Below are positions 35,924 to 54,139 of a DNA stretch of 64,000 nt, in pieces. The position numbers and the translations under genes were made by a program. The notes below the pieces were generated by a model. It was given only the letters and a program-made list of their open reading frames with translations, was not told the DNA's origin and searched no databases. Source of the stretch: a virus. The stretch is taken from positions 88,321 through 152,320 of IMG/VR virus record IMGVR_UViG_3300032092_000005; one strand, given 5' to 3'. Within the stretch, counting starts at the first letter, position 1. Every line of letters begins with the position of its first letter.

Positions 35924-35953
35924 AGTATAACACTACCAACCACCACTTGTCAA
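35924..35953 (-). promoter_or_regulatory. Antisense sigma70-type promoter upstream of gp55
   Basis: Minus strand reads TTGACA-18 nt-TATACT with an extended -10 TG; no minus-strand gene lies downstream. Confidence 0.6.
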
Positions 35954-35973
35954 TAGACAAAGAAAGAAATACC

Positions 35974-36573
35974 ATGGCTAGTACACATTATGTAAACAAT
36001 GCAGACTTCTTGCAGGAAATGATCATCTATAAGAAGATGGTAAAAGATGCAGAAGCGGAAAACAAAGATCGCCCGAGGGTTCCAGAGTATATTGGCACCT
36101 GCATGTTTAAGATTGCAACACACTTAGCACGTAAGCCAAACTTTGCCAATTACACATTCAAAGAGGACATGATATCTGATGGTATTGAAAACTGCCTGTT
36201 GTACATTGACAATTTTGATCCTGAGAAGTATAGTAATCCATTTGCATACTTTACTCAGATAATTTACTATGCGTTTCTTAGAAGAATCCAAAAGGAAAAG
36301 AAGCATATGTACATTAGATACAAGAGTATGCAGAATGAAATCATTAATGTATTAGTAGACAATGCGGGTGAAGAATTCGTATCGTCACATATGAACGGAA
36401 TGATCAATGATGCATACAGCGATAATTTCATTAAGGAATTTATCGAAGCATTTGAGACAAACAAAAAGAACAAGGCTCCTGCACCAAAAAAGAAAGCTGT
36501 AAAGGGAGTTATTAAATTTATGGAGAATGAAGAAAATGAGCAACAATCACACACCATTGCCAGTGCAGCTTGA
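35974..36573 (+). CDS. gp55: Late sigma factor gp55
   Basis: HYVNN, NFANYTFKEDMISDGIENC, NPFAYFTQIIYYAFLRRI; start ATG 35974. Confidence 0.95.
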   Translation: MASTHYVNNADFLQEMIIYKKMVKDAEAENKDRPRVPEYIGTCMFKIATHLARKPNFANYTFKEDMISDGIENCLLYIDNFDPEKYSNPFAYFTQIIYYAFLRRIQKEKKHMYIRYKSMQNEIINVLVDNAGEEFVSSHMNGMINDAYSDNFIKEFIEAFETNKKNKAPAPKKKAVKGVIKFMENEENEQQSHTIASAA

Positions 36574-36721
36574 GTATTGGATTAAAATCGTAGAGAACAA
36601 AAGAAGTCCTATGGATTTAAAAGCAAATGCAGTCTTGCATTTACGTTCAGTTCGTGATACAATAAACAATGTCCTTGACGCACCCACTCCTAACCGCTGG
36701 AATACTCCCTATAAAAAATGA
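36536..36721 (+). CDS. Small hypothetical protein
   Basis: ~61 aa, overlaps the gp55 end and the gp47 start. Confidence 0.55.
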   Translation: MSNNHTPLPVQLEYWIKIVENKRSPMDLKANAVLHLRSVRDTINNVLDAPTPNRWNTPYKK

Positions 36722-37782
36722 AAATTTGTTTACTTGGCGATACGCACTTTGGAATCAGAAACGATTCCAAAGTCTTTCATGAATACTATGAGAAATTTTA
36801 TGATGAAATTTTCTTTCCATACTTAAAGCAGAATGGCATTGATACCGTCATTCAGCTTGGAGATTTATTCGACAGACGGAAGTACATCAACTTCCTGTCG
36901 CTGACTGAGAGTAGACGTTACTTTTTTGATAAGCTTCGGAATGAAGGCATTCATCTTCATGCATTGATCGGCAACCATGATATCTTCTACAAGCATACGT
37001 TAGAAGTGAATTCGCCCGAGCTATTGCTTAAGGGCTACGACAACATCACGCTATGGAATAAAGAAGGCACATTAGAACTTGATGGACTTGCTATCGATAT
37101 GATTCCGTGGATGTGTAATGACAATGAAAAGCAGATCATGGACTTTATCAATAGCAGCGTGTCGCCTATCTGTCTTGGTCACTTTGAACTATTAGGCTTT
37201 GAAATGTCTAAGGGCGTAGAAAGTCATGAGGGTGTCAAATCGACATTCCTATCACGGTATGATCACGTATACAGTGGACACTATCATACAAAGTCTACAA
37301 GTAAAAACGTTAGCTATCTTGGCACACCTTACGAACTATTCTGGAGTGACTACAAAGACATAAAGGGATTCTATGTGCTGGACACTAAAGATAATTCGGT
37401 AGAGTTTGTAGAGAATCCATTGCGCATGTTCTACAAGATTAATTACAATGACGCAGACGGACAAGAACTCAATATCGATTACTCAGAATATACAAACACA
37501 TACGTCAAAGTCGTTGTTATAAACAAGCAGAACCCATTCAAGTTTGACACTATGATGGATGAACTATATAAAGCATTACCGACTGACATTACTATTGTAG
37601 AAGACTTCACAGAGGCTTCATTGAACGGTGATGATGACGAAATTAATCAAGCAGAGGATACTGTCACTATCCTATCAAACTTTATTGACCAACAGAATTT
37701 GACTAATGTTGATGGAACTAAATTGAAGACACTAATGCGAGAACTCTATGTTGAAGCATTGTCTTCGGAGACAATTGAATAA
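36718..37782 (+). CDS. gp47: Recombination endonuclease gp47 (Mre11-like)
   Basis: GDTHFG, GDLFD, GNHD, SGHYH phosphoesterase motifs. Confidence 0.95.
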   Translation: MKICLLGDTHFGIRNDSKVFHEYYEKFYDEIFFPYLKQNGIDTVIQLGDLFDRRKYINFLSLTESRRYFFDKLRNEGIHLHALIGNHDIFYKHTLEVNSPELLLKGYDNITLWNKEGTLELDGLAIDMIPWMCNDNEKQIMDFINSSVSPICLGHFELLGFEMSKGVESHEGVKSTFLSRYDHVYSGHYHTKSTSKNVSYLGTPYELFWSDYKDIKGFYVLDTKDNSVEFVENPLRMFYKINYNDADGQELNIDYSEYTNTYVKVVVINKQNPFKFDTMMDELYKALPTDITIVEDFTEASLNGDDDEINQAEDTVTILSNFIDQQNLTNVDGTKLKTLMRELYVEALSSETIE

Positions 37783-39494
37783 TGATTATATTTAATAAAT
37801 TACGTTGGAAAAACTTCATAAGCACAGGCAATGTGTTCACAGAGATTAAACTAGATGATGAAGCATCTACGCTAGTCGTTGGTGGTAATGGTTCTGGCAA
37901 GTCTACCTTTCTAGATGCAATTTGTTTTGCGTTGTTTGGTAAGCCATTCCGCAACATCAACAAAGCACAGCTTATCAACACCATCAACCAAAAAGATGCA
38001 ATCGTTGAAGTTGAGTTTACTACTAGCGGCAAGTCTTATAAGATCGTCCGCGGCATCAAGCCAAATATATTTGAAATCTATTGTGACGGCAAGCTAATCA
38101 CACAAAGCGCAGCAGTAAAAGACTATCAAGAACACTTAGAGAAATTCATCCTCAAATTGAACTACAAGTCGTTTACTCAGATTGTGATTTTGGGTAGTGC
38201 ATCATTTACTCCATTCATGCAGTTAGCAGCAGCCGAACGCAGATCAATCATTGAAGACTTGTTGGACATTCAGATTTTCTCACGTATGAATTCCGTATTG
38301 AAAGATAAAGTTGCAACACTAAAAGATGACTTGAATACTGGTAAGTATAGCATGGACTTGATTAAAGAAAAGATCACTATGCAGACAAAGTACATCAACA
38401 ACATCAAGCAAGACAAGCAGAATCAAATTGATGTTTATAATGAAAACATTAGCGTAGAAGTTGAGAACATAAAAACATATGCAGTAGCCGCTACCGCAGT
38501 AGCATTGGAGATTAGCGCACTTGAAGAATCTATTGAAGATAAAGAAGCTAATGCCAAGATGATTACAAAGTACAGTGGATTAAAAGACAATCTAAACAAA
38601 ACGGCACTGAAGGTAGATAAAGATATCAAATTCTATACCGAAAACAATGACTGTCCTACATGCAAACAGACATTGACAGAAACGTTCAAGTCTGATATGA
38701 TAGATGAACGCAAAGTAAAACTTGCGCAAGTCGTTGAAGGAATGAAAACGTTGTCTGTAAAGAATTCAGAAGTCAATGCGAGACAAGAAGAAATTATTCA
38801 AGTACTGAAAAACATTGCTGCGCAACAAAAATCATTTAACTCAATTCAAAGTCAGATCATTGCTGGTCAAAGATACATCGAAAAGACAAGAAAAGAAATT
38901 GCAGCATTGTCAGCAGAAACTGGCAATATTGAAGTAGAGCAATCAAAATTGACTGGATTAGAAAAGTCTTGCCAAGATCATGAAGATGTTATTCGTGACC
39001 TGACAGACAAGCGTTCTTATTTTGATGTTGCAGCTACTCTATTGAAAGACACTGGCATCAAGACTAAGATCATTAGACAATACATTCCAGTTATCAATAA
39101 GCTAGTCAACAAGTACCTTGCGACAATGGACTTTTTTGTGAACTTCAATTTGGACGAATCATTCAAAGAAACAATCAAGTCGCGCCACCGTGACGAATTT
39201 TCTTACGCATCATTCTCTGAAGGTGAAAAGCAACGGATCGACATGGCGCTTATGCTTACATGGCGCGCAGTTGCAAAGATGAAGAATTCAGCAAACACAA
39301 ACATCCTGATTCTGGATGAAGTGTTTGATTCTTCACTAGACACTAATGGTACAGAAGACTTGATGAAAATCTTAGGTATGTTGGACGATACTAACCTGTT
39401 CGTGATATCACACAAGGGCGATATCTTACAAGACAAGTTTAGGAACGTGATTAAGTTTGAGAAGGTGAATAATTTTTCAAGGATGATAAAATGA
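37782..39494 (+). CDS. gp46: Recombination ATPase gp46 (Rad50-like)
   Basis: GGNGSGKST, CPTC zinc hook, FSEGEK signature, LDEVFD. Confidence 0.96.
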   Translation: MIIFNKLRWKNFISTGNVFTEIKLDDEASTLVVGGNGSGKSTFLDAICFALFGKPFRNINKAQLINTINQKDAIVEVEFTTSGKSYKIVRGIKPNIFEIYCDGKLITQSAAVKDYQEHLEKFILKLNYKSFTQIVILGSASFTPFMQLAAAERRSIIEDLLDIQIFSRMNSVLKDKVATLKDDLNTGKYSMDLIKEKITMQTKYINNIKQDKQNQIDVYNENISVEVENIKTYAVAATAVALEISALEESIEDKEANAKMITKYSGLKDNLNKTALKVDKDIKFYTENNDCPTCKQTLTETFKSDMIDERKVKLAQVVEGMKTLSVKNSEVNARQEEIIQVLKNIAAQQKSFNSIQSQIIAGQRYIEKTRKEIAALSAETGNIEVEQSKLTGLEKSCQDHEDVIRDLTDKRSYFDVAATLLKDTGIKTKIIRQYIPVINKLVNKYLATMDFFVNFNLDESFKETIKSRHRDEFSYASFSEGEKQRIDMALMLTWRAVAKMKNSANTNILILDEVFDSSLDTNGTEDLMKILGMLDDTNLFVISHKGDILQDKFRNVIKFEKVNNFSRMIK

Positions 39495-40012
39495 TTGATA
39501 TCAATGATGTAGGACTAAAGTTAGTTGAAGAGACTAGCAGCATATTAACACAGGTCAGTGGTGATTTTGATTTCCAGAATCCACTGATGGATCCTAAAGA
39601 ACTTGCACAGAAGTTGCATTTTCATATGGTCAAGAATGATGGTCTTGGTATTTCAGCATGTCAGATTGGCATACCGCTAAGAGCATTTGCTATGCGTATT
39701 GAACAGAATACTCCATTCGTTCTATTCAATCCTAGAATCGTAAACGTATCCGAAAAAGAAATCTCTATGAAAGAAGGATGCTTAAGCTTTCCTCTATTGT
39801 TCCTGAACGTAAAGCGTCCAGACGCAGTTAGACTTAGATATCAGACAGAGACTGGTGAAACTGTTACTAATCAATTCATTGGCATGAGTGCGCGAATTGC
39901 GTTGCATGAAATGGACCACATGGACGGCAAAGTGTTCACTTCTAGAGCTTCACCGTTCGAGGCTCAAAGAGCATTGCGTAAGCGTATGATTCTAAAAAGA
40001 AAAGTGAAATAA
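39491..40012 (+). CDS. def: Peptide deformylase
   Basis: All three PDF motifs are present: GLGISACQIG, EGCLS, HEMDH. Confidence 0.93.
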   Translation: MIDINDVGLKLVEETSSILTQVSGDFDFQNPLMDPKELAQKLHFHMVKNDGLGISACQIGIPLRAFAMRIEQNTPFVLFNPRIVNVSEKEISMKEGCLSFPLLFLNVKRPDAVRLRYQTETGETVTNQFIGMSARIALHEMDHMDGKVFTSRASPFEAQRALRKRMILKRKVK

Positions 40013-40015: not shown

Positions 40016-40276
40016 ATGAGCACCGAGGAAGACAAATTCAAACACAGCAAGCGTCTCCTAAAAGACGAAAACGCAGTGAAGAAACAAGTTAGAATTGCAA
40101 AAGAGTTTGGTGTGCCAGTTAAAGAACCTCATAAGTTTGCTAAACACCACGCAATGAATTGTGGTAATCCAAAATGTGTTATGTGCATGAACCCACGCAA
40201 GTCGTTTGGTGAACTCACAATGCAAGAAAAGAAATTTAATCAACGTGAACGTATCGTGGAGACTTCAAATGATTAA
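40016..40276 (+). CDS. Basic hypothetical protein with a Cys cluster (CGNPKCVMC)
   Basis: 86-aa ORF; possible Zn site. Confidence 0.65.
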   Translation: MSTEEDKFKHSKRLLKDENAVKKQVRIAKEFGVPVKEPHKFAKHHAMNCGNPKCVMCMNPRKSFGELTMQEKKFNQRERIVETSND

Positions 40277-40706
40277 AGAGAAATATCTTGGCGCATACAT
40301 GAAGACTGCAAAAATATTTGCAGCATTAAGTAGCGCCACGCGCAGGCATGTTGGCGCTATCATTGTCAAAGATGATAGAATTATTTCTATTGGATACAAT
40401 GGCATGCCAAGTGGATGGGATAATAATTGTGAATACTTGGAATACCAAAGGTTTGATGAACCAATTCTAGTTACCAGACCTGAAGTCCTCCATGCCGAAT
40501 CAAATGCAATTGCTAAGTTAGCTAAGTCTACCGAAAGTGGTGACGGAGCTTCTATGTTTATCACTTGCAGTCCATGCATAGAATGTGCTAAAATGATCTA
40601 TCAAAGCGGGATCAAAGAGGTATTCTATGAAGAGGACTATAAGAGCACCCAAGGTTTAGATTTCCTAAATAAATGTGGAATCAAAGTCGTAAAACTAAAG
40701 GAATGA
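40269..40706 (+). CDS. cd: dCMP deaminase
   Basis: GYNG, HAESNAI, SPCIEC zinc-deaminase motifs; start ATG 40269. Confidence 0.9.
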   Translation: MIKEKYLGAYMKTAKIFAALSSATRRHVGAIIVKDDRIISIGYNGMPSGWDNNCEYLEYQRFDEPILVTRPEVLHAESNAIAKLAKSTESGDGASMFITCSPCIECAKMIYQSGIKEVFYEEDYKSTQGLDFLNKCGIKVVKLKE

Positions 40707-40707
40707 T

Positions 40708-41058
40708 ATGACAGTAAAAGAAACAACAGCATACGAAAGTTGCATCGGAGAAAAAGTTGAGTTGCCTAAACCAAATTCACTAGTTGAATTTATGGAATTG
40801 AATGAAGAAGAAAAGCTTCAGCTAGAACAAGACACAGACAAAGAATGGCAGAAACATTGGATAGGTATGCCTGAGTATTCGCAGCAAGACAATCCTCCAT
40901 ACAAAAAACTTATCGTAAGCTTTAGAACCAAAGAAGACTATGAAGAATTTTCTAAGTTGATTGGCCAAGGTCTTAGCGAAAAGACTAAGAGTATTTGGCA
41001 TCCAAAACTAGACAGAGATGCTAATGCGCTCCGTCGTTGGATTCAGGAAGAAGCATGA
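40708..41058 (+). CDS. Small partner protein of the glycosyltransferase
   Basis: WIGMPEY.Q...F...D...F..LI.Q....TKSIW.P; overlaps the GT start (ATGA). Confidence 0.7.
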   Translation: MTVKETTAYESCIGEKVELPKPNSLVEFMELNEEEKLQLEQDTDKEWQKHWIGMPEYSQQDNPPYKKLIVSFRTKEDYEEFSKLIGQGLSEKTKSIWHPKLDRDANALRRWIQEEA

Positions 41059-41957
41059 TGAACCCGAACTATCCTGTATACATCATATCAAAGGGTAGAG
41101 CCGATTCTATGTTTACTTCTCGCTCACTTGCGAGAATGAAAGTCCCTCATTATATTGCAATCGAACCTCAAGATGAAGAGCCGTATGAAAAAGCTCTAGA
41201 TACTTTCGGTATTAGAAAGTATGTAACATTACTTGTCGCACCATTCAGCAATCATGGTGACGGACCAGGTCGTGCTAGAAACTGGTGCTGGGATCACGCT
41301 ATCACAATAGGTGCAGAAAAGCATTGGGTTCTTGATGATAACATCAATGACTTCTATCGCCTTCAACACAATCAACGAATTCGTGTAGAGTCTGGTGCTA
41401 TCTTTAAAGCAGCAGAAGATTTTGTTGATCGATATGAAAACGTTCCTATTGCAGGCTTTCAATACCGATTCTTTATTGCACCCAACTCAAAGTATCCTGC
41501 TTACTCAAAGAACACACGGATTTATTCTTGCTTGTTGATTGACAATAATTGCAAGCACCGCTGGCGTGGTCGATACAATGAAGACACTGATATTTGCCTC
41601 CGTGTACTGAAAGATGGTGACTGCACAATTCAGTTTAATGTATTCTTGCAAGGTAAAGCAGCAACACAAACTGTTAAGGGTGGCAACACCGAAGAGTTCT
41701 ATCATAAAGAAGGCACACAAGACAAAACACAATGGCGCGATGGTACATTGAATCCTGAAGGCACAATTAAGAAGTCTCAGATGCTTGTCGATTTGCATCC
41801 TGATGTGTCTAAGATTGTATGGAGATACGGCAGATGGCATCACTATGTTGACTATCTTCCATTCAAAAAGAATGCACTCAGATACAAGCCAGGTATTGAG
41901 ATTGATCCTAAACCAAATAACTATGGAATGAAGTTGACTACAAACTTTAAGGGATAA
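41055..41957 (+). CDS. GT-A glycosyltransferase, TAGT/GREB1-like family
   Basis: YPVYIISKGR start, WVLDDNI (DxD-like), NTRIYSCLLI, RYNEDTDICLR, GGN motifs characteristic of TET-associated/GREB1-like GTs. Confidence 0.75.
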   Translation: MMNPNYPVYIISKGRADSMFTSRSLARMKVPHYIAIEPQDEEPYEKALDTFGIRKYVTLLVAPFSNHGDGPGRARNWCWDHAITIGAEKHWVLDDNINDFYRLQHNQRIRVESGAIFKAAEDFVDRYENVPIAGFQYRFFIAPNSKYPAYSKNTRIYSCLLIDNNCKHRWRGRYNEDTDICLRVLKDGDCTIQFNVFLQGKAATQTVKGGNTEEFYHKEGTQDKTQWRDGTLNPEGTIKKSQMLVDLHPDVSKIVWRYGRWHHYVDYLPFKKNALRYKPGIEIDPKPNNYGMKLTTNFKG

Positions 41958-41960
41958 AGT

Positions 41961-42815
41961 ATGAGTATAGTCAATGAGATTGGTAAAGAAGGATTAAAAA
42001 GATATCTTGAAAACTGCGCTAAGGTTGCAGATATTGATATTGAAGATGCATTTAAAGTTACAGTGAATTGTATCAAAGCGCATGATGGCGCAAGTATTAA
42101 TGATGACGATATGCGCCAAATGAAAGTCCTTGAGAATAGGTGGTATGCGTCATTGAATAGTGAGACACCAGATTATTCTGTCTATTCTGATCCCTATTAT
42201 TTTTGTGAAGTATGGATGTGCTGGGTAAAATACTCAAGAAGATATCTCAAAGAAATTAATTCTTTCAAGTCAATGTCTGGTAGAAGTATAGTCGATTATA
42301 TAGGTAATATAGATAATGTTATTGATTTAGGATGTGGCTTTGGTTATACTACTGTCGGTATGAAAGAGTTGTTCCCTAACTCTGATATATATGGAACAAA
42401 CGTCAAAGATAACTATCAATATAAAATGGCAACAGAGTTAGGCGAGAAACATAATTTTAAAATTGTCGAAAATATTACTCAAATTGAAAATACAAAGTCT
42501 AGTTTAATCTTTGCATCTGAATACTTTGAACATTTTGATAGACCTATCGAACATTTAATTGAGGTATTAGAGTATAATTCTCCAAAGTTTATGTTAATAG
42601 CTAATACATTTAATGGAAAAGCAATAGGACATTTCAATGAATATAAACACAGTACTAATCGATATAATGGAAAAGAAATTGGAAGATTATTTGGCAAAAC
42701 ATTGAGAGAATACGGATACGAAACTGTTGATACGAATTGCTGGAACAATAGACCCGCATTTTGGGAAAAGAAAAGTAGTTCTAAGTCGCCGCTTGCTAAG
42801 TTTTTAATGGATTAA
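41961..42815 (+). CDS. Class I SAM-dependent methyltransferase (small-molecule/sugar type)
   Basis: Motif I VIDLGCGFG; IFASEYFEHF.P post-II motif; no DPPY/NPPY or PC motif of DNA MTases. Confidence 0.8.
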   Translation: MSIVNEIGKEGLKRYLENCAKVADIDIEDAFKVTVNCIKAHDGASINDDDMRQMKVLENRWYASLNSETPDYSVYSDPYYFCEVWMCWVKYSRRYLKEINSFKSMSGRSIVDYIGNIDNVIDLGCGFGYTTVGMKELFPNSDIYGTNVKDNYQYKMATELGEKHNFKIVENITQIENTKSSLIFASEYFEHFDRPIEHLIEVLEYNSPKFMLIANTFNGKAIGHFNEYKHSTNRYNGKEIGRLFGKTLREYGYETVDTNCWNNRPAFWEKKSSSKSPLAKFLMD

Positions 42816-42834
42816 TATTTAAAGGATGATAATT

Positions 42835-42993
42835 ATGAAAACTATGTTGATATACTTAGGATGTATCTTCTATACACTGTACATCTATACAGTACTTTTT
42901 ATGCCTAGAGGTGTTATGGCGATGATTCCAGCTAAGGTACTAGCATTCCCAATGGACAATTGGCTATCCAGAAGGTTTTTCAAGATAAATTGA
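42835..42993 (+). CDS. Small hydrophobic membrane protein (52 aa)
   Basis: MKTMLIYLGCIFYTLYIYTVLFMPRG..., with an AAGGA RBS upstream; below the ORF-track cutoff. Confidence 0.5.
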   Translation: MKTMLIYLGCIFYTLYIYTVLFMPRGVMAMIPAKVLAFPMDNWLSRRFFKIN

Positions 42994-43001
42994 GGGAATT
43001 C

Positions 43002-43062
43002 GTTGCTTTTTTGCAACAAAACCAAAAATAGTTGTTGACGGGACTGGCAAACCTGTTATTAT
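43002..43062 (+). promoter_or_regulatory. GTTG-N8-CAAC box plus sigma70 promoter
   Basis: GTTGCTTTTTTGCAAC (43002-17), 17 nt, TTGACG-16 nt-TATTAT with an extended TG. Confidence 0.75.
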
Positions 43063-43096
43063 AGAGTCTTAGTGATTGAGATTTAAGGATAACAGT

Positions 43097-43669
43097 ATGA
43101 ACCACATAGAACATCCAGACGCATATGCTGCCGCTACCAAGCGCAACATCATCATGAATGCCCGCACGACATTCTTCCGCACAGTTGCCGATGCACCTCA
43201 GATTATTGAGTACTTGGATCGTCAACCCGACCGTAACCAATTTGCGCAAAGCCTGCGTATGGCTCTTGACAACTATGGCAAGTTGACAGAAAAACAATGC
43301 CAAGCGGTTCGTAACTCTATGGAGCGTGAGGTACAGTGGAAGGCTGAGTACTTAGCTAAAGCCACCGCTGCTGCTGCAAGCCAAAAATTCGTTGGCGAAG
43401 TCGGCAAAAAGGTAACCCTTACTGTTACAGTTAAAAAAGAAATTATGGTTGACCGCCCGAAGTTTCATTACTACGATAGCGGTACATCCAACATTCGCCT
43501 TTGCCAGGATCAAGATGGCAATGTCATTGTATTCTCGGGCAATGCAGCCTTCCCACTTGAAGGCGAGACGGCTACCATCACTGCCACAGTAAAGTCTCAC
43601 CGCGTATACAGCCGCAACGGTGTAGACACTCCTCAAACTACGATAATTCGTCCCAAAATTGTTGCTTAA
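43097..43669 (+). CDS. Hypothetical early protein, possible C-terminal OB-fold
   Basis: Start ATG 43097 with AAGGA; beta-rich C-terminus (FVGEVGKKVTLTVTV...TITATVK). Confidence 0.65.
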   Translation: MNHIEHPDAYAAATKRNIIMNARTTFFRTVADAPQIIEYLDRQPDRNQFAQSLRMALDNYGKLTEKQCQAVRNSMEREVQWKAEYLAKATAAAASQKFVGEVGKKVTLTVTVKKEIMVDRPKFHYYDSGTSNIRLCQDQDGNVIVFSGNAAFPLEGETATITATVKSHRVYSRNGVDTPQTTIIRPKIVA

Positions 43670-43740: not shown

Positions 43741-45930
43741 ATGCTTGATACCAATATCTCCCGTTCCAATCTAGCTAAACTGTTAGCTACTGAGGACATT
43801 ACCGTATCTTATAAGAAGGTTGAAACGGCTTCGTTCAACCTTGTTACCCGCGAACTCATTCTCCCAATTTGGAATGACGTTACTCCTGAGATTTATGACC
43901 TGCTAGTTGGTCATGAAGTTGGTCACGCACTGGATACTCCTAGAGCATATCTGGATGCTGCTAATGCTGGTGGACGTAATTTTGCTACATTCCTGAACGT
44001 GATTGAGGATGCACGGATCGAACGTAAAATCAAAGTGCGCTACCCTGGACTGCGCAAGCCTATGGCTATTGCGTACCGTCAATTCATTGACCGCGATTTC
44101 TTCCAGATCAAAGGCAAGGACGTTTCTAAGCTCCTGCTAATTGACAGAATCAACCTACACTTCAAAGTCGGCGCATTTTCTGGCGTTAACTTCTCAGACA
44201 CCGAATTACCTTTTGTTAAGGAAATTGAAGCCGCTGAACGATTTGAACAGGTTAAAGATATCGCTACTCGCCTCTATTCATATTGCGAGGAAGAGTTAAA
44301 GCAAAAGCAGGAAGAGGCTGAGGATCGCCGTGCTAAACAACAGGAAGCTGGTGACGATTCTAATGGCGATTTTGGTTCCGACGATCAAATGGATGATCAA
44401 GATGATGACCAAGAAGAATCTCCTGTAGAAGATGGTGATTATTCCAATGAAGATGGTGACGATGGTGATTTTGATGAGGAAGATGCACCTGCTCCTTCTG
44501 GATGGTCGGCTGGCAAAATGGATGAAACCGATGAAACCATTGAAGACTACAAGGACGAGGTCAAGTCTCTGACTTCCGAAGCTTTGGAAAACAATCTGAA
44601 AGGCCTTGCTGAAACAAAAAACATTCAAGTCGGCAAATTGCCTTCTACAACAGACTTTGACCTGAAAGAAATTATCATTCCGTTCAAGGAACTTTCGTTT
44701 TTTGATCCAACATTTTACACTTCCGAATCGTATATGGCTGGTGCATTGAACGAATTCGAAACCAAAAACAAAAATGCTATTTCGTATTTGGTTAAAGAAT
44801 TTGAAATGAAAAAGAAGGCAGCCGAGTTGCGCCGTGTTACTGTAGCAGATTCTGGTACACTGAACACCAACAAGTTGCATTCTTACAAATTCAATGACGA
44901 TATCTTCCGTAAGATTGGTTCTATTGCTGCTGGTAAGAATCACGGCATTGTTCTGTTTGTTGACTGGTCTGGCTCTATGCAAGACAACATGCAAGGTACC
45001 ATTGAGCAATTGCTTACATTGACTACCTTCTGCCGTAAAGTTAATATTCCGTTTGATGTATATGCATTCACTACCGGCTTTGTTAAGAAATCTCTGATTG
45101 ATCGCCTGAAGAATGATGGTGATGAAAATACGTTGGAACTTAATGCTTTTGGGTTGATGAACATTCTTTCTAGCAACATGAAAAACCAAACTTACAAAAA
45201 GTTTGCTAATGACTTGTTGAATTTTGCCTCTGCTATGGCGAACCTATATTTAAAAGATGGTCGCCGTAATTACGCTAGAAACTACATTACGGATGATCAT
45301 GGTCTTGGCGGCACTCCTTTGAATGCAACTATCATGGTTGCAAGCGAGGTTGTTAATGCTTTCCGTGTTAAAAATAAGTGCGAGATTGTGAATGTAGTTT
45401 TTCTGACTGACGGTGAGGACAACTCTAACATCTGGACTAATGGTGATAGAAATTCTCCATACGGATACGCTACTAGAAAGATGATCGGTGCGGGCGACAA
45501 AGGCAATGTAAGCTATGTTGAGGATAAAGTTTCTCGCAAAACATATCGTGTTGGCTATAGAGGCATTACACCAACTTTGCTTAATGTATTGAAGGACAAT
45601 ACACAATGCAATTTGATTGGCTTCTACATTATCGCTAAGAAAAAAACTCATTTCGATAATGCTGGTGTGCGCCTCGGTGTAAAAAACTTGGTCGATGGAT
45701 ACACATCATTCAAGGCTGACAAATTTTTCAGCATTACTGATTATGGATATGATGAATACTTTTTGATTCCTGGCGGTTCTGACTTGTCGACCGATGATGA
45801 TTCTCTGGAAGATATCGTTGGCAAGGAAGCAGTAACTACCCGTAAACTGCGTGGTGCATTCCTCCAGATGAACCAAAACCGCTTGCTGAACCGGGTTTTA
45901 CTGTCAAAAGTGATCAAAAAGCTTGCTTAA
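43741..45930 (+). CDS. Metallopeptidase-like domain + acidic linker + vWA protein (CobT-like partner of the AAA ATPase)
   Basis: HEVGH zincin motif, NVIEDARIE, D/E-rich linker, MIDAS DWSGS, GTP, LTDGE. Confidence 0.85.
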   Translation: MLDTNISRSNLAKLLATEDITVSYKKVETASFNLVTRELILPIWNDVTPEIYDLLVGHEVGHALDTPRAYLDAANAGGRNFATFLNVIEDARIERKIKVRYPGLRKPMAIAYRQFIDRDFFQIKGKDVSKLLLIDRINLHFKVGAFSGVNFSDTELPFVKEIEAAERFEQVKDIATRLYSYCEEELKQKQEEAEDRRAKQQEAGDDSNGDFGSDDQMDDQDDDQEESPVEDGDYSNEDGDDGDFDEEDAPAPSGWSAGKMDETDETIEDYKDEVKSLTSEALENNLKGLAETKNIQVGKLPSTTDFDLKEIIIPFKELSFFDPTFYTSESYMAGALNEFETKNKNAISYLVKEFEMKKKAAELRRVTVADSGTLNTNKLHSYKFNDDIFRKIGSIAAGKNHGIVLFVDWSGSMQDNMQGTIEQLLTLTTFCRKVNIPFDVYAFTTGFVKKSLIDRLKNDGDENTLELNAFGLMNILSSNMKNQTYKKFANDLLNFASAMANLYLKDGRRNYARNYITDDHGLGGTPLNATIMVASEVVNAFRVKNKCEIVNVVFLTDGEDNSNIWTNGDRNSPYGYATRKMIGAGDKGNVSYVEDKVSRKTYRVGYRGITPTLLNVLKDNTQCNLIGFYIIAKKKTHFDNAGVRLGVKNLVDGYTSFKADKFFSITDYGYDEYFLIPGGSDLSTDDDSLEDIVGKEAVTTRKLRGAFLQMNQNRLLNRVLLSKVIKKLA

Positions 45931-45932
45931 AT

Positions 45933-45994
45933 GTTGTAAAAAAGCAACGGTTTGCAAAATAACCGTTGACTCTCCGCAAGAACCATGGTATAAT
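45933..45994 (+). promoter_or_regulatory. GTTG-N8-CAAC box plus sigma70 promoter
   Basis: GTTGTAAAAAAGCAAC (45933-48), 17 nt, TTGACT-17 nt-TATAAT with an extended TG. Confidence 0.8.
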
Positions 45995-46027
45995 AGAGTT
46001 TAGATTGATTGATTTACAAGGTTTATT

Positions 46028-47248
46028 ATGATTACCACTCAAGAAAAAATTGCGTTTATTACCGAAGCTTCCAAACGCTACGGCGCTACAGTTACCCGCC
46101 AACAATTGCGGGACATGATGGCAGAAGGCATCATCAAGCGCCAAATCTGGTTTGAATGCAATAAATACAGGTGTGGTCGTGCCGAGTATGCACTACCCTT
46201 TGAGGAATTCTCCCTCACCCCTCCTTCTGGTATCGTTTCCAATGCGCCCATTGAAACGGTAGAAAATGTAGTACCTATGGCTAAAAAAACAGAATCGGCT
46301 CCAGTAGTAGCCAAAGCGCCAACCCGCATTTCGTCCGTTCAACGGATGCAAGAGGGAGCTATCATTCCTAAAGTGAATGACTTGTATGTGCCGTTCGGCT
46401 TTTTCGATAACATGAAACGGATCGTAGGCTCACGCCGTTTCTATCCTGTGTTTGTTTCTGGTCTGTCTGGTAACGGCAAGACTTTCATGGTAGAACAAGC
46501 CTGTGCGCAACTCAAGGTAGAATGCCTCCGTGTGAATATCTCTCCTGAAACGGATGAGGATGACTTGATCGGCGGCTTCCGTTTGATTGACGGTGAGACA
46601 AAATGGTTTGACGGTCCTGTCGTGCAAGCTATGAAGTCTGGTGCAGTCCTGATTCTGGACGAAATTGACCGCGGCTCTAATAAGCTTATGTGTCTGCAAG
46701 GCGTTCTGGAAGGTAAAGGTCTTTTCGTTAAGAAGACTGGCGAATTCGTAGAGCCTGTGACTGGCTTCAACGTTATCGCTACTGCTAACACAAAGGGCAA
46801 GGGCGATGACAGCGGTCGGTACATGGCAGCTACAATCCTTGATGATGCGTTCCTAGAGCGTTTCCCTATCACGGTTGAGCAGGAATATCCTGACGTTAAA
46901 GTAGAGACTAAAATTCTCACCAAACTGTTCACTAGCCTCGGCATCAAGGATAAAGTATTCGCCGAAAATCTGGTGAAGTGGGCTGATATCATCCGTAAGA
47001 CTTTCGAGGAAGGTGCTATTGATGAATTGATTTCTACTCGCCGTTTGTCTCACATTGCCGAAGCTTACACTATCTTCAACAATAAGATGGAAGCCATTCG
47101 CTACTGTATCAACCGCTTTGATGCCGAGACTAAGACTTCATTCTTGGACTTGTACACCAAGATCGATGCTGAGACTAACATGCCAGCGCAGTCGGCACCT
47201 TCGACAGTGCCAACGCAGGCAGTAGAAGATGAAGAAATTCCTTTTTAA
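46028..47248 (+). CDS. cobS: CobS/MoxR-like AAA+ ATPase
   Basis: GLSGNGKT, DLIGG, LILDEID, ATANT, AFLERF; typical T4-like phage CobS. Confidence 0.9.
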   Translation: MITTQEKIAFITEASKRYGATVTRQQLRDMMAEGIIKRQIWFECNKYRCGRAEYALPFEEFSLTPPSGIVSNAPIETVENVVPMAKKTESAPVVAKAPTRISSVQRMQEGAIIPKVNDLYVPFGFFDNMKRIVGSRRFYPVFVSGLSGNGKTFMVEQACAQLKVECLRVNISPETDEDDLIGGFRLIDGETKWFDGPVVQAMKSGAVLILDEIDRGSNKLMCLQGVLEGKGLFVKKTGEFVEPVTGFNVIATANTKGKGDDSGRYMAATILDDAFLERFPITVEQEYPDVKVETKILTKLFTSLGIKDKVFAENLVKWADIIRKTFEEGAIDELISTRRLSHIAEAYTIFNNKMEAIRYCINRFDAETKTSFLDLYTKIDAETNMPAQSAPSTVPTQAVEDEEIPF

Positions 47249-48181: not shown

Positions 48182-48463
48182 ATGGCACCAGATTATAAAT
48201 TTGGTGAAGATGTGATCCTTCAAGAACTGAAGGATTACATTGATGCTACCTACAATCTACACTATGCAAGAACCAAATTTCAAGCTACAGAGTTTATTAT
48301 CGACTCTGGACATGGAGAAGGCTTTGCGCTAGGCAATATTATGAAGTACACACAGAGGTATGGTAAGAAGAATGGCAAGAACAAAGCAGACTTGCTAAAG
48401 ATTCTCCACTATGCTATAATGGCTATGCATGTACACAAAACAAATGAAGAAGGAAAATTATGA
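48182..48463 (+). CDS. DUF3310/SaV-like small protein
   Basis: HY...GFALGNIMKY..RYGKK....DLLK..HY. Confidence 0.75.
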   Translation: MAPDYKFGEDVILQELKDYIDATYNLHYARTKFQATEFIIDSGHGEGFALGNIMKYTQRYGKKNGKNKADLLKILHYAIMAMHVHKTNEEGKL

Positions 48464-49131
48464 AACTCAGTGAAGCTACAATAAATGTTCTAAAGAACTT
48501 TTCAACAATCAATACAGGACTTGTATTCAAACAAGGCAATGTATTGCGCACAATCTCTAAAGGACAAACTGTTCTCGCTAAGGCAACTATTCCAGACAGC
48601 TTTGATCATGAATTCACTATCTATGACTTGAATCGGTTCTTGTCTTTGATCGGTACTCTTGACTTACCTGAACTAGCTTTCAAAGAAGGCGAAAAGACTA
48701 TCAAGGTTGTATCTGGTAAATCTAAGACTACTTATGGGTTGTCTGACGAATCTATGGTTGTTGCACCTCCAGCTAAAGATATCAAGATTGAAAATCCAGA
48801 AGTGAGTTTCATTTTGACTAAAGATGACCTTGCTCAGGTATTACAAATGGCTGGTATATTGGGCCTTCCTAATATTGCATTGCGAGGTGATCGAAACAAA
48901 ATGACCCTTGTTGCATTAGATGTAAAGAATGTCGATTCAGACGTTTTCTCGGTTGAAGTCGGCACTACTACAGCAGAATTCGAGGCATTGTTTGTTACTG
49001 AAAATTTAAAGATGGTTCCCGCGGACTATAATGTCACAATCTCTTTTAAGGGAATTTCACACCTCAAGCACACTACTGAACCAATAGAATACTGGTTAGT
49101 CCTTGAGCCAAAATCCAACCACGCAGAGTAA
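48460..49131 (+). CDS. gp45: Sliding clamp gp45
   Basis: MKLSxxTxxVLKNFSxIN, IYDLNRFL, ENLKM. Confidence 0.95.
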   Translation: MKLSEATINVLKNFSTINTGLVFKQGNVLRTISKGQTVLAKATIPDSFDHEFTIYDLNRFLSLIGTLDLPELAFKEGEKTIKVVSGKSKTTYGLSDESMVVAPPAKDIKIENPEVSFILTKDDLAQVLQMAGILGLPNIALRGDRNKMTLVALDVKNVDSDVFSVEVGTTTAEFEALFVTENLKMVPADYNVTISFKGISHLKHTTEPIEYWLVLEPKSNHAE

Positions 49132-49134
49132 CTC

Positions 49135-49524
49135 ATGGAGAAACTGTTAATTAAAGTACCAGTCTCTCTTGGAGAACTTGTCGATAAGATTACTATTCTT
49201 AGGATCAAACAGGCATGTATGACAGATGAAGAAAAACTGTCTAACGTAACGCATGAATATAATATGCTTGTTGCTATTCCAGAATACGTTGCAGTTAAAG
49301 ATACCATTGCATCACAAGAAGCGGAATTACATAAAGTTAATCAGCGCCTCTGGTATTATGAAGAAGATATCCGCGACTTTGATAAACTGGAAAGTCCAAA
49401 TATATTTGCACTCATGAGAGTTGCAAAGGGCATTCACACCACAAATGATGAACGTAGCCAAATCAAAAAAGAAATCAATATTATGTGTAACTCTGAACTA
49501 GTAGAGGAAAAATCCTATGAGTAA
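49135..49524 (+). CDS. DUF6165-like protein
   Basis: PVSLGELVDKITILRIK, LW..EE..R, ND.R..IK..IN, EEKSY. Confidence 0.75.
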   Translation: MEKLLIKVPVSLGELVDKITILRIKQACMTDEEKLSNVTHEYNMLVAIPEYVAVKDTIASQEAELHKVNQRLWYYEEDIRDFDKLESPNIFALMRVAKGIHTTNDERSQIKKEINIMCNSELVEEKSYE

Positions 49525-49786
49525 TGTTATCGTCCCATCTTCACCTGAAGACAGAAAGAAAATCAAAGATGCATTGATTGAAATTTCATCATCACTCACT
49601 CGCATGGAAGCAGAACGTGATTTGATCAAGGACATTCTTGCTGAAGTAGAAGATAAATTTGAGTTGCCTAAGAAGTATATTCGCAAGCTTGCTAAGATTT
49701 ATCATAAGCAAAACTACGCTGAGATTCGCCAAGAGCAAGATGACGTAGAGACTCTATACGAAACTGTGACTGGACCAGCAGCATGA
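49517..49786 (+). CDS. DsbA-like dsDNA-binding protein
   Basis: Helical 89-aa protein with K.IRKLAKIYHKQN...E.LY, as in T4-like DsbA homologues. Confidence 0.7.
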   Translation: MSNVIVPSSPEDRKKIKDALIEISSSLTRMEAERDLIKDILAEVEDKFELPKKYIRKLAKIYHKQNYAEIRQEQDDVETLYETVTGPAA

Positions 49787-50130
49787 CAGTAAATACTAAG
49801 CGAAGTTTTCTAAGAGGCGCAGGATTATTTGGACTCATTGCTGGTATTGGCAGTGCAGCAGCAGCGGAATCTTTGACTGCTTCATTACCAGAAGTAAAAG
49901 AAGATATTAGTCATCTAGCGCCGCCACAGAATGCTACTACTATTCAATTTACAGGCGCATATGGCAAACAGCCAGAGCCTCAACCCGTGAGTGCCACATG
50001 TGGCAATTCTTTTTACATTAACGGATTCAATCAAGAAACGACACACAAAGTATGTATGTCTGTTGGACTTGACAATCGCCTTTGGCTAAAAGTTGGTGAT
50101 GAATGGCGCCGTGTCGCATTGGAATCTTAA
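49783..50130 (+). CDS. Hypothetical exported protein with a Tat-like signal peptide
   Basis: TKRSFLR + hydrophobic stretch + AAAA-E cleavage site. Confidence 0.6.
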   Translation: MTVNTKRSFLRGAGLFGLIAGIGSAAAAESLTASLPEVKEDISHLAPPQNATTIQFTGAYGKQPEPQPVSATCGNSFYINGFNQETTHKVCMSVGLDNRLWLKVGDEWRRVALES

Positions 50131-50138
50131 CATTGTGT

Positions 50139-50182
50139 TTGCATTCTAACATCGCCTGTGTTACAATACGTAGGTGATGTTA
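50139..50182 (+). promoter_or_regulatory. sigma70-type promoter within an inverted repeat, upstream of gp44
   Basis: TTGCAT-17 nt-TACAAT; TAACATCGCCT...AGGTGATGTTA arms flank the -10. Confidence 0.55.
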
Positions 50183-50202
50183 CACTATTATTATGAGGTA
50201 TA

Positions 50203-51144
50203 TTGATGATTGAAGATTTCTTGTGGGTCGAGAAGTATCGCCCTAAGACTGTAGAAGAGACTATTCTTCCTGCTGATCTTAAAACTACATTCGCAAAATT
50301 CGTGTCAAATGGGAATATTCCTAATTTGATTCTGACTGGTGGTGCTGGCGTTGGTAAGACTACTATAGCTAGAGCAATGCTTGAAGAACTTGGGTGTTCT
50401 TATATCGTAATCAACGGATCGATGAACGGTAACATCGATACTCTGCGGAATGAAATTAAAAATTTCGCATCTACTATGTCATTTAAAGGCGGTCGTAAAT
50501 ATGTTATCCTGGATGAAGCAGACTATCTCAACCCTACTAGCACACAGCCAGCTTTGCGCAACTTCATGGAAGAGTTTTCTGCTAATTGTGGCTTTATCCT
50601 TACTTGCAACTTTCTTAATCGTATCATCCAGCCTCTACATTCCAGATGCTCAGTCATTCAATTTAAGATAAGCAATACAGATAAGCCAAAGCTTGCTGCA
50701 CAATTCTTTAAGCGTGTTAGTGGCATTCTACAAAAAGAAGGTATTGAGTTTGAGCCTCCTGTTGTTGCAGAAGTAATCAAGAAGCACTTCCCAGATTGGC
50801 GTAGGGTGTTGAATGAACTTCAACGCTATTCTGCTACAGGTAAGATTGACACTGGCATTCTATCTAATGTCATTGAGGTGTCTATCAAGAATCTTCTTGA
50901 TACTCTTAGGTCGAAAGACTTCTCTACAATGCGCAAGTGGGTTAATGAAAACAATGACAATGATTCATCGGTGATCTTCCGTAACCTGTTTGATAACATC
51001 CTAGAGTACATTGAGCCAGCATCCGTGCCTGTGTTCATTATGCTCCTGTCTGAGTATCAATACAAAGCTGCATTTGTTGCTAATCCTGAAATCAATATGG
51101 CTGCATTCTTGACAGAGGTCATGGCATCGTGTGAAATCAAATGA
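50203..51144 (+). CDS. gp44: Clamp loader large subunit gp44
   Basis: WVEKYRP, GGAGVGKTT, ILDEAD, SRC motif. Confidence 0.96.
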   Translation: MMIEDFLWVEKYRPKTVEETILPADLKTTFAKFVSNGNIPNLILTGGAGVGKTTIARAMLEELGCSYIVINGSMNGNIDTLRNEIKNFASTMSFKGGRKYVILDEADYLNPTSTQPALRNFMEEFSANCGFILTCNFLNRIIQPLHSRCSVIQFKISNTDKPKLAAQFFKRVSGILQKEGIEFEPPVVAEVIKKHFPDWRRVLNELQRYSATGKIDTGILSNVIEVSIKNLLDTLRSKDFSTMRKWVNENNDNDSSVIFRNLFDNILEYIEPASVPVFIMLLSEYQYKAAFVANPEINMAAFLTEVMASCEIK

Positions 51145-51617
51145 CACAAACAAAAGAAGTTAAAATGCAGATGCTTGGCAACTACGGTGAACGAATCGTA
51201 GGTGAAGTACTGCGTTCTATTGGATATGATGTAGTCTATTCAGATGATCCCTATGACAGAACTAAAGATATGACTGTCAATGGATCGACTGTTGAGATTA
51301 AGACTCAAGTTCCATTCTATTCAGAAAAAGCATTCTCTATTAGTGCTAAACAATTGAGAAAATGTAATAGTGTTGACTATGTTGTATTTGTTGCAGTTCC
51401 TTCAATGAGCATGACTAGTATTGGTCGTGGTAACTCTATTGATGGCAACATCTATACAGTAGACCCACAGATAGCTAAATGGCGCAGTCGGACTACAAAC
51501 GATGGCCGTTCAATGTATTTGATGGATATCAATCAGCCTGGAGTAACACTATGTCACAAAATAACAAATCAAAAAATTCTGAACAGTCTAACAAAGCTAA
51601 CAACAAGCAAAGCATAG
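51141..51617 (+). CDS. Putative PD-(D/E)XK endonuclease inserted between gp44 and gp62
   Basis: G..GE helix, then D-M...V-E-I-K catalytic pattern (KDMTVNGSTVEIKTQ). Confidence 0.6.
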   Translation: MTQTKEVKMQMLGNYGERIVGEVLRSIGYDVVYSDDPYDRTKDMTVNGSTVEIKTQVPFYSEKAFSISAKQLRKCNSVDYVVFVAVPSMSMTSIGRGNSIDGNIYTVDPQIAKWRSRTTNDGRSMYLMDINQPGVTLCHKITNQKILNSLTKLTTSKA

Positions 51618-52027
51618 TCTTAGATGGAGTTGAGTACGATCCGTTTTCTCTCCTGAAGATTGTTTCACACACTAAAAAAGATCCATTCAAAGACTTGGAG
51701 AACCCAGAACTCCTAGACAAATACTACAAAGAAAAGTGTGCATGGATCATTAACACTGGACTATCCCTGTTTCCTGATTCGATTCTGGCTGCTAATGAAA
51801 TGAACCGAAGTTCCCATCTAGACGGAAGACTTCAATTCACGTATTTACTAAATACTCTTAGACCTAGGAATAGGTACGAGAAGTGGTTGAAAAATCGTGT
51901 GTCGCAAGAAGTTAAAGACGTTTCGGAATATTATGGTTACAACATTACCAAAGCCAAAGAAGCACTTAAGATTCTCTCCGATGAAGATTTAAAGATCATT
52001 CATACTAAATTAGAAAAAGGTGGATAG
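51551..52027 (+). CDS. gp62: Clamp loader small subunit gp62
   Basis: IINTGLSLFPDSILAANEMN, LQF.YLLN.LR, YYGY...KAKEAL; ATG 51551 with GGAG upstream. Confidence 0.88.
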   Translation: MSQNNKSKNSEQSNKANNKQSIVLDGVEYDPFSLLKIVSHTKKDPFKDLENPELLDKYYKEKCAWIINTGLSLFPDSILAANEMNRSSHLDGRLQFTYLLNTLRPRNRYEKWLKNRVSQEVKDVSEYYGYNITKAKEALKILSDEDLKIIHTKLEKGG

Positions 52028-52044
52028 AACACCGGGGAGATGTT

Positions 52045-52449
52045 ATGGACATTGAAAGATTATTGGAGATCACTCTTGCTGAAAAAGATGATTTCCTAAA
52101 GGTAAGAGAAACTCTTACTAGAATTGGAGTGGCTTCAAGAAAAGAAAACAAATTGTTCCAGTCGTGCCACATTCTCCACAAGCGTGGTAAATATTACATT
52201 GTACATTTTAAAGAGTTGTTTGCACTAGATGGTAAAGACACAGACTTTGATGAAGATGACTTGGGTAGACGGAACACTATTGCGAACTTGTTGGCTGAAT
52301 GGGGATTGCTTAAGATTGTTGATCCTGAAAAATCAAAAGACCCTATCGCACCTCTGTCACACATCAAAGTAATTTCATATTCCGAAAGAACAAAATGGGA
52401 GCTTGTTACTAAATATAGTATCGGTAGCAACACTAGAAGGATAAATTAA
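52045..52449 (+). CDS. regA: Translational repressor RegA
   Basis: DFLKVRETLTRIG, QSCHILHKRGKYYIVHFKELF. Confidence 0.97.
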   Translation: MDIERLLEITLAEKDDFLKVRETLTRIGVASRKENKLFQSCHILHKRGKYYIVHFKELFALDGKDTDFDEDDLGRRNTIANLLAEWGLLKIVDPEKSKDPIAPLSHIKVISYSERTKWELVTKYSIGSNTRRIN

Positions 52450-52450
52450 A

Positions 52451-52885
52451 ATGGAAGAACTAATTCAAGCACTCAAAGTAAATTTGGCAACACACTTTTC
52501 ATTTTACTTAAAGACGCAATACTACCACTGGAATGTCACTGGTCCAAATTTCTTTCAATATCACACAATGCTACAAGGCATCTATGAAGAAGTTTATGGT
52601 GTAGTGGACCAACTTGCAGAAGAGATTCGCGCATTAGATGCATATGCTCCAGGTAGCTTCAAAAGATATGGCGAATTATCTCTGATTAAAGATGATGAAA
52701 CAGTTCCTCCAGCTGAGGCAATGTTCAGTAATTTGCTTTACGATATTGTGTTAGTCCAAAACAATATCAAAGCCGTTTATGATCTAGCAGAGCAAAACGG
52801 ACTGCACAATCTTTCCAATCTTATGGCAGAACGCCAAGATGCGTTTCGAAAACACGCATGGTTTCTAAAAGCAACGTTGAAGTGA
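52451..52885 (+). CDS. dps: Dps / ferritin-like protein
   Basis: HWNVTGPNFFQYH, D.LAEEIR ferroxidase motifs, KHAW.L. Confidence 0.92.
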   Translation: MEELIQALKVNLATHFSFYLKTQYYHWNVTGPNFFQYHTMLQGIYEEVYGVVDQLAEEIRALDAYAPGSFKRYGELSLIKDDETVPPAEAMFSNLLYDIVLVQNNIKAVYDLAEQNGLHNLSNLMAERQDAFRKHAWFLKATLK

Positions 52886-52886
52886 C

Positions 52887-52915
52887 TTGACAAACGTTGA
52901 AAAATATGAGATAAT
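52887..52915 (+). promoter_or_regulatory. sigma70-type promoter
   Basis: TTGACA-17 nt-GATAAT with an extended TG. Confidence 0.75.
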
Positions 52916-52979
52916 GTTATCTCACTATCGCTAAGGAAACTTAGTTTTTTATTATTAAATACTCGAAAGGTATATTATT

Positions 52980-53207
52980 ATGGCATTTGTAAAATCAAAC
53001 AAAACTCAGGCAGAACTCTTGATATCGTATTTGCGCGGCAAGGGCCGTGGCATTACTGCACCTCAAGCTAACGCATTGTTCGGCGTAAAGAATCTACGCG
53101 CACGTATGAGCGACCTCCGCATGGAAGGCTTCAAGGTTCGCACTTCTCTAAACACAGAAGGACGTACAAAATATTACGTATCACGCCGTAAAATCGGTCA
53201 AGCCTGA
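52980..53207 (+). CDS. Small winged helix-turn-helix DNA-binding protein
   Basis: TQ..L...L....GIT..QA..LFGVKNLRARMSDLR.EG..V pattern. Confidence 0.75.
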   Translation: MAFVKSNKTQAELLISYLRGKGRGITAPQANALFGVKNLRARMSDLRMEGFKVRTSLNTEGRTKYYVSRRKIGQA

Positions 53208-53215
53208 TATAAATA
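53208..53215 (+). promoter_or_regulatory. Late promoter TATAAATA (structured leader/hsp20)
   Basis: Exact consensus. Confidence 0.75.
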
Positions 53216-53220
53216 ATAAT

Positions 53221-54082: not shown

Positions 54083-54099
54083 TAGTGAACAACACACAA

Positions 54100-54123: not shown

Positions 54124-54139
54124 ATTATAGGATTATAAA

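Follow-up and report, generated by a model that had tools for sequence, protein, structure and literature searches.

A split TAGT-family glycosyltransferase and a linked methyltransferase in the replication block of a T4-type phage: a candidate module for methylated sugars on phage DNA

To our knowledge, every case of phage DNA glycosylation begins with a hydroxylated pyrimidine, the product of a thymidylate-synthase-like enzyme or a TET-type dioxygenase. We describe here a module that carries a glycosyltransferase (GT) of the TAGT family, in the right-hand 64 kb (the window) of a 152-kb IMG/VR virus record (IMGVR_UViG_3300032092_000005) of an uncultured, aquatic T4-type phage, for which completeness is estimated at 85%. 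The module consists of a small adaptor, the GT and a class I S-adenosylmethionine-dependent methyltransferase (MT), and we propose, tentatively, that it places a sugar on phage DNA at the sliding clamp and then methylates that sugar. Throughout, G000 denotes the window's own genome and G001, G007 and G008 three further module-bearing phage genomes (completeness 100%, 96% and 100%, respectively); L-numbers refer to related loci.

The founding TAGT, the beta-glucosyl-HMC-alpha-GT of T2 and T6 (HMC, hydroxymethylcytosine), is a characterised PF20691 enzyme that acts on DNA (PMC13216743). It shares with the window GT the Pfam family, the GT-A fold class and a place in the early replication block of a T4-type genome, and both are part of a multi-enzyme tailoring series, which for the window GT is a prediction. 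The T2/T6 enzyme differs in being a single chain with no adaptor domain and in its need for the alpha-GT and for 5-hydroxymethylcytosine (5hmC) made by gp42; none of the T-even genes gp42, alpha-gt and beta-gt was matched in the window phage. We know of no methyltransferase partner in the T-evens. The T4 alpha-glucosyltransferase is encoded, like the module, in the gp55-gp47-gp46 block, and it co-purifies with gp45 (PMC13216743), the mode proposed below for the adaptor, but it has a GT-B fold (PF11440), no sequence similarity to the window GT and a known acceptor, 5hmC.

The phage GT-A enzymes associated with 5mYOX or ThyS, together with the trypanosome JGT (Pyle et al. 2023; Burke et al. 2021), have the pattern R...DD(D/N)...ED(x) in common with the window GT, and JGT-related phage GT-A enzymes glycosylate 5hmC (bioRxiv 10.1101/2023.12.21.572611). 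In their clusters, as here, they are joined by secondary GTs, epimerases and further tailoring enzymes; they differ in that a C5-methyltransferase plus TET, or ThyS, makes the acceptor, none of which was matched in the window phage or in three relatives. The text of the preprint by Pyle et al. contains neither 'O-methyl' nor 'methylated sugar', and about 65% of the GT contigs mined there were set aside as orphans (bioRxiv 10.1101/2023.12.21.572611). Closest to the window GT are the solitary long-form TAGTs of the Aeromonas phages Aeh1, 65 and phiAS5, Tenacibaculum phage PTm1 and Vibrio phage Kuja, which are 45-50% identical to it in the catalytic domain and share the N-terminal domain. They differ in that the adaptor and catalytic parts form one polypeptide, that ThyA-family proteins are encoded in the same phages and that there is no MT. 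The Aeh1 gene has been listed as 'presumably modifies DNA, unknown base' (PMC8056088), and solitary TAGTs have been counted in 288 of 753 phage genomes (PMC13216743). Orphan TAGTs as such are already known; in the literature searched, no description was found of a dedicated MT family, an MT-TAGT fusion, a split adaptor with a clamp-like peptide or a cassette slot. Viral GTs paired with a sugar methyltransferase, sometimes in one chain, occur in chlorovirus PBCV-1, whose A064R protein has two glycosyltransferase domains and a sugar methyltransferase domain, and in mycobacteriophages, which carry glycosyltransferase and O-methyltransferase genes. These systems differ from the present module in their target (capsid or tail protein) and their GT families, and they have neither a replication-operon context nor a clamp-like peptide.

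The original prediction, made from the letters of the window alone, described a DNA hypermodification module of four tightly coupled genes, and all four open reading frames (ORFs) are present on the + strand where it placed them. These are a dCMP deaminase of 145 amino acids (aa) at 40269-40706, the 116-aa adaptor at 40708-41058, the GT at 41055-41957 (300 aa from its ATG) and the 284-aa MT at 41961-42815. Deaminase and adaptor are 1 nt apart, adaptor and GT overlap by 4 nt (ATGA) and a 3-nt gap separates GT and MT. The tight coupling is thus real, but it is not peculiar to these four genes, since it runs unbroken from gp47 through gp46, a peptide deformylase gene and an 86-aa ORF. Because the operon is tightly coupled throughout from gp47 to the MT, coupling alone does not tie the deaminase to the GT. 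Of the proposed four-gene module, the adaptor, the GT and the MT hold together as one unit, whereas the deaminase falls outside it on the evidence of synteny and of ThyX (see below).

The GT is a true member of the TAGT family, as its motifs had led the original prediction to suppose. It matches PF20691 along the whole profile (positions 1-205 of 205) with 151.4 bits against a cut-off of 27.5 (E = 4.1e-44), and phrog_842 with E = 5.6e-47. In an alignment of 67 sequences more than 110 residues are near-invariant, including SKGR, GPGRARN, DDN and NEDTD, and the GT-A active-site pattern R...DDD...EDY/F is kept in a variant form with DDN for DDD and EDT for EDY/F. The solitary TAGT genes of the cultured phages named above, its nearest cultured relatives, encode 399-471 aa; tblastn with the window GT did not reach the T-even enzymes. 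Close relatives of the GT were found on 358 viral contigs.

The 116-aa ORF had been taken for a small partner, which implied a separate function. This is not borne out, as the ORF represents the GT's own N-terminal domain, split off here and fused in other phages. In Aeh1, PTm1 and Kuja the N-terminal 100-140 residues of the fused TAGT align with it at E-values of 5e-9 to 4e-11, and in a joint alignment the 116-aa ORF and the GT lie end to end along the long-form proteins. In all 99 of the 99 related loci scored the adaptor is a separate ORF of 108-126 aa, and in many of them another gene separates it from the GT. An assembly frameshift as the origin of the split was considered and rejected in view of the clean ATGA overlap, the splitting in 99/99 loci and the frequent intervening gene; the split is fixed in the clade of the window phage. 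The conserved core of the adaptor comprises W-x-x-H-W-x-G-M-P-E and K-T-K-S-I-W-x-P. No family match was obtained in Pfam, PHROGs or NCBIfam, matches in the ESM Atlas were limited to viral hypothetical clusters, and the AlphaFold2 (AF2) model is poor (pLDDT 66.6, pTM 0.30). A profile search matched 2963 representative clusters. Ten longer adaptor-carrying proteins were scanned, of which four contained PF20691, five no family and one a weak LAGLIDADG match; PF20691 is therefore the sole enzyme domain seen fused to the adaptor. Because adaptor and catalytic subunit are one polypeptide in other phages, the former would be expected to dock on the latter through its C-terminal core.

The acidic linker of the adaptor contains a putative sliding-clamp-binding-like peptide, SLVEFMELNEEE (40777-40812, + strand). 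It resembles the C-terminal GVIKFMENEENE of the window phage's own gp55 (35947-36573, + strand), and the likeness extends to SLDFLYEAND of T4 gp55 and SLDFLFG of T4 gp43. The clamp-client pattern tested was (S/T)L-x-x-F-(L/M/F/Y) followed by acidic residues in a flexible segment. This motif was found in 28-31 of 55 unique adaptors, compared with about one in shuffles and 0.5-0.7% of background windows. Across the clade the adaptors show a gp55-like pattern that mirrors the gp55 tails of the same phages. The peptide is internal in the adaptor, whereas in the T4 clamp clients it is C-terminal. From these likenesses we infer that the adaptor may be a client of the gp45 sliding clamp.

The MT carries motif I (DLGCGFGYTT) and a marginal match to PF08241 (22.1 bits, cut-off 21.2). 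The absence of a DNA-methyltransferase signature, remarked on in the original prediction, was confirmed: the translation contains no DPPY/NPPY or PC motif, PF01555, PF02384 and PF00145 were not matched, and no DNA methylase appeared among the best 50 Foldseek and 50 VIA structural matches. Judged by motif or by modelled fold, the MT is not a DNA-base methylase. Its AF2 model is confident (pLDDT 92.5), and its top-scoring structural neighbours are O-methyltransferases of small molecules (Z 12.6, with an rmsd of 3.6-3.9 over 209-214 residues). Sequence and profile searches of the PDB returned generic class I matches alone, at E = 6.5e-4 or weaker, and weak family matches point to BioC, Tam, UbiG and a pseudaminic-acid-associated methylase. 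The invariant motifs SEYFEH and GHF fit sugar O-methylation but are not specific to it. A HEN1-like ExxEH metal site was considered and not adopted, the ExxEH motif being common in UbiG-type methylases.

All 791 MT homologs come from metagenomes or metagenome-assembled genomes (MAGs), and 273 relatives lie on viral contigs. In genome collections the MT occurs on MAG contigs only, and on the majority of these the phage GT and adaptor are present too; the family is phage-only. The window MT is more AT-rich than its neighbours, as had been noticed (GC 31.8% compared with 40.4% for the GT; third-codon-position GC 26% compared with 35.5%). Because GC of the MT is below that of the GT in all 20 of 20 other loci checked, this AT-richness is partly intrinsic to the family.

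The content of 91 MT loci was scored with hidden Markov models (HMMs) of the adaptor, the GT and the MT. All three genes were present in 69 loci, GT and MT in 8, MT and adaptor in 2 and the MT alone in 12, so that a TAGT accompanies the MT in 77 of 91. Three gene orders occur, namely adaptor-GT-MT, adaptor-MT-GT and MT-adaptor-GT. On a Hyphomonadaceae MAG contig the two enzymes form a single TAGT-MT fusion of 564 aa (L193:3581-5275, + strand; TAGT match over residues 7-224, E = 3.5e-25). Conversely, the MT is absent from many GT loci. That the MT is rarely found without a TAGT while the GT often stands without an MT places the MT downstream of the GT, and the MT is probably a tailoring enzyme that acts on the GT product.

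The suggestion of a swappable tailoring gene also stood up to comparison, through the 77/91 linkage, the fusion, a cassette-like insertion/deletion relative to L005 and L006 and the presence of other genes in the same slot. In L005 and L006, where the GT is 95-96% identical, the GT stop codon is directly followed by the 55-aa ORF that lies downstream of the MT in the window, and there is no MT. The window MT is flanked by copies of a short TTTAA(A/G)GGAT(A/G)A repeat and is a clean cassette insertion compared with these near-identical relatives. In other relatives the slot around the GT holds an FkbM-type methylase, a distant MT paralog, a second TAGT, a weak Anp1-like GT-A protein, a 354-aa protein without a family or an N6/N4 DNA-methyltransferase-like gene; variable genes of this slot lie at L040:5319-6008, L015:6915-7769, L035:4944-6008, L008:5663-6520 and L021:6905-7816. 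Beside a conserved GT, this slot is a hotspot.

In some 100 syntenic loci GT identity amounts to 75-98%, compared with 42-63% for gp46, gp47 and gp55, and gp46/gp47 are 42-59% identical among the same phages. Between G000 and G001 the GT and the MT are each 77.7% identical, which places them at ranks 5-6 of 77 reciprocal orthologs (median 46.7%); PhoH and both ribonucleotide reductase (RNR) subunits are among the other top-ranked pairs. Identity at four-fold degenerate sites of GT and MT is 0.47-0.53, close to that of RNR and PhoH. High protein identity combined with four-fold sites near saturation indicates strong purifying selection on both genes. Recent horizontal transfer as the cause of the high identity was rejected on the same RNR/PhoH-like four-fold values.

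The module is also found in G008, a 141.6-kb, 61%-GC unrelated phage in which the module comprises the only genes detectably common with G000. The GT similarity was detected by blastp at 1e-4 and that of the MT by tblastn/HMM. In this copy (L179, G008:C1:62028-72804) the MT and the GT stand together with a weak match to the adaptor; the terminase genes follow the module immediately, and a DUF5131 (Gp37/Gp68) gene lies ~3 kb upstream of it.

In the window phage the order gp55-gp47-gp46-...-module-...-gp45 places the module in an early/middle replication-recombination block. The late-promoter motif TATAAATA had no match anywhere from 33007 to 53208. In L022 the GT is directly followed by a dNMP kinase gene and gp45, and in unrelated phages the recurring neighbours of the module are SSB, helicase, recombinase, YqaJ exonuclease and terminase genes.

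Among 65 diverse loci, nucleotide-sugar enzymes were represented by an epimerase/dehydratase in 11 and a UDP-glucose dehydrogenase in 5. In the window phage a nucleotide-sugar block lies outside the window, just upstream of gp32 (G000:C1:54497-62362; L211:14497 to L212:2362). It encodes a GDP-mannose 4,6-dehydratase (Gmd; PF16363, 3e-143), an NDP-hexose C-methyltransferase (PF08484, 4.7e-42), a HAD-like protein, a 386-aa protein with an RpiB/LacAB isomerase domain and three other ORFs. The block is reminiscent of a cluster of sugar-modifying genes in RB69-type arabinosylating phages (PMC13390438), and the donor sugar of the TAGT module could come from this block.

The reading that we favour, if only tentatively, is that a DNA glycosyltransferase tethered to the clamp transfers a sugar that is afterwards methylated, with the acceptor left unspecified. 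The TAGT subunit, held at the clamp, would attach a sugar, donated by a nucleotide sugar, to freshly replicated phage DNA, the MT would then methylate this sugar, probably on a hydroxyl, and the capped, methylated glycan on the DNA would hinder host nucleases. We infer that the target is DNA, that the adaptor binds the clamp, that the MT acts on the sugar and that the modification is protective; DNA is the best guess because of family precedent, the early/middle replication-block position, the clamp-like peptide and the sugar-tailoring neighbours. Several points weigh against this reading. GREB1, a member of the TAGT family, O-GlcNAcylates a protein, ER-alpha (PMC7968844), and Pyle et al. rate GT-A contigs without 5mYOX/ThyS as less obviously DNA-directed (bioRxiv 10.1101/2023.12.21.572611). 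The predicted clamp binding rests on a short motif, in an adaptor whose fold is modelled with low confidence. The structural matches of the MT are generic and flat at Z ~12 and do not fix its substrate, and when 50,697 records of cultured phages were searched by tblastn with the MT, no match was found. The profiles of the ThyA family (PF00303), TET/JBP (PF12851), C5-methyltransferases (PF00145) and 2OG-oxygenases (PF13640) were unmatched in G000, G001, G007 and G008, although the TET/JBP model, for which no control genome gave a match either, could miss a divergent 5mYOX. Likewise, T4 gp42, alpha-gt and beta-gt and the Aeh1/Kuja ThyA-family queries found no match in 190 loci (~1.79 Mb, mostly module flanks) or in G000, G001 and G008.

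The lack of a TET or gp42-like gene, which the original prediction had reported for the window, extends to the whole 152-kb record, in which no ThyA-family or TET/JBP match was found. With no C5-methylase match either, the 5-hydroxymethyl-pyrimidine acceptor that it had expected is without a visible source in the module genomes, and since G008 has only the module in common with G000, there is no conserved partner enzyme at the BLAST level. One version of the DNA reading, possible although rather doubtful, would accommodate this: the acceptor would be a canonical base position, or a base from an unrecognised enzyme, and not ThyA- or TET-derived, and the MT would then O-methylate the sugar on phage DNA. 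That the acceptor is instead 5hmC or 5-hydroxymethyluracil from an unrecognised enzyme, with the adjacent deaminase feeding the pathway as part of the module, appears quite improbable in view of the same missing matches, even though the acceptor of characterised family members is a hydroxymethyl group or a sugar hydroxyl, and a ThyA-family gene is present in each of the cultured phages with a fused long-form TAGT (Aeh1, PTm1 and Kuja); two tandem TAGT genes lie ~6 kb from this gene in Kuja. The deaminase itself is clear (PF00383, 78 bits against a cut-off of 25, E = 5.5e-22; phrog_174, 2.7e-50), with the zinc motifs HAE (HAESNA) and PCxxC (CSPCIEC) in its translation. In the window and in the closest relatives (L004-L006 and L013) it adjoins the module, and L026, L027 and L034 have a distant deaminase behind the GT, but in other relatives it lies elsewhere or ~5.5 kb away. 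ThyX is encoded in the window phage's genome, and together the two enzymes account for an ordinary dCMP -> dUMP -> dTMP route. On synteny and the presence of ThyX, the dCMP deaminase was rejected as a member of the module.

Targets other than DNA have also to be weighed. The module might build a methyl-capped glycan on a virion or host protein, a reading that we consider unlikely. The GREB1 precedent speaks for it, as does the absence of a detectable DNA acceptor pathway in complete genomes; the slot with extra GTs and sugar-type methylases (FkbM, Anp1-like, second TAGT) resembles glycan-building loci, the GT-MT fusion has the same architecture as A064R, and nucleotide-sugar tailoring genes lie nearby. 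However, the module is located in early/middle replication operons and not among late structural genes, no late promoter motif was found and the adaptor carries its clamp-binding-like peptide. Moreover, the GT is conserved like enzymes of nucleotide metabolism, whereas virion proteins diverge, and G000 and G008, two phages without other common genes, would need the same protein target. Action on RNA or tRNA, on a free nucleotide or on a small metabolite, with the MT as an ordinary small-molecule O-methyltransferase, is very unlikely, as we know of no TAGT-family enzyme with substrates of this kind and the clamp-like peptide and replication context favour DNA. Here too the missing DNA acceptor pathway counts in favour, together with the large tRNA array of the window phage and the weak family matches of the MT given above. 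Its nearest structures, small-molecule O-/N-/C-methyltransferases and, weakly, the ribose 2'-O-methylase HEN1, would fit as well, but these matches are flat and generic.

The remaining genes around the module were mapped on the + strand. Upstream of it are gp47 (36718-37782), gp46 (37782-39494), the peptide deformylase gene (39491-40012; PF01327, 5.3e-35) and the 86-aa ORF (40016-40276). The start of the peptide deformylase gene is coupled to the end of gp46 by ATGA, and this synteny is kept in most relatives. Downstream follow the 55-aa ORF and a 197-aa ORF (42826-43669), a vWA/AAA pair (43741-47248) and gp45, gp44, gp62, regA and gp43 (48460-56937, with gp45 at 48460-49131). The 729-aa vWA protein and the 406-aa AAA ATPase, which we take to resemble CobT/CobS or MoxR pairs, are encoded downstream of the module in about half of 80 GT loci and in most MT loci. 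Between regA and gp43 lie a ferritin-like gene (52451-52885; PF00210, 1.5e-20) and an Hsp20 gene (53421-53915; PF00011, 5.7e-17). The slot between gp43 and uvsX, which in T4 contains gp42 and beta-gt, holds unrelated ORFs, as the original prediction had stated; they encode 133 aa and 288 aa, neither with a significant family. The 288-aa ORF (57340-58206) gave a faint, non-significant match to a fucosyltransferase catalytic domain (PF19745, E = 0.0059). Nucleotide megablast of the locus against cultured phages returned no match.

The module is very common in aquatic phages, and selection acts on it as strongly as on ribonucleotide reductase; even so, neither a thymidylate-synthase-like nor a TET-type enzyme is visible in complete genomes. 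If its target is not DNA, orphan TAGTs can no longer be read as markers of DNA modification. If the target is DNA, either a base would be prepared or used for glycosylation in a hitherto undescribed manner or the linkage would be new, and methylation of the sugar would be a new tailoring step, with a bearing on the evasion of restriction and CRISPR and on enzymes for DNA labelling. Should the acceptor prove to be neither ThyA- nor TET-derived, this would be the first DNA hypermodification with a methylated sugar and a new entry to DNA glycosylation, widespread in aquatic phages as judged from the 358 GT and 273 MT viral contigs.

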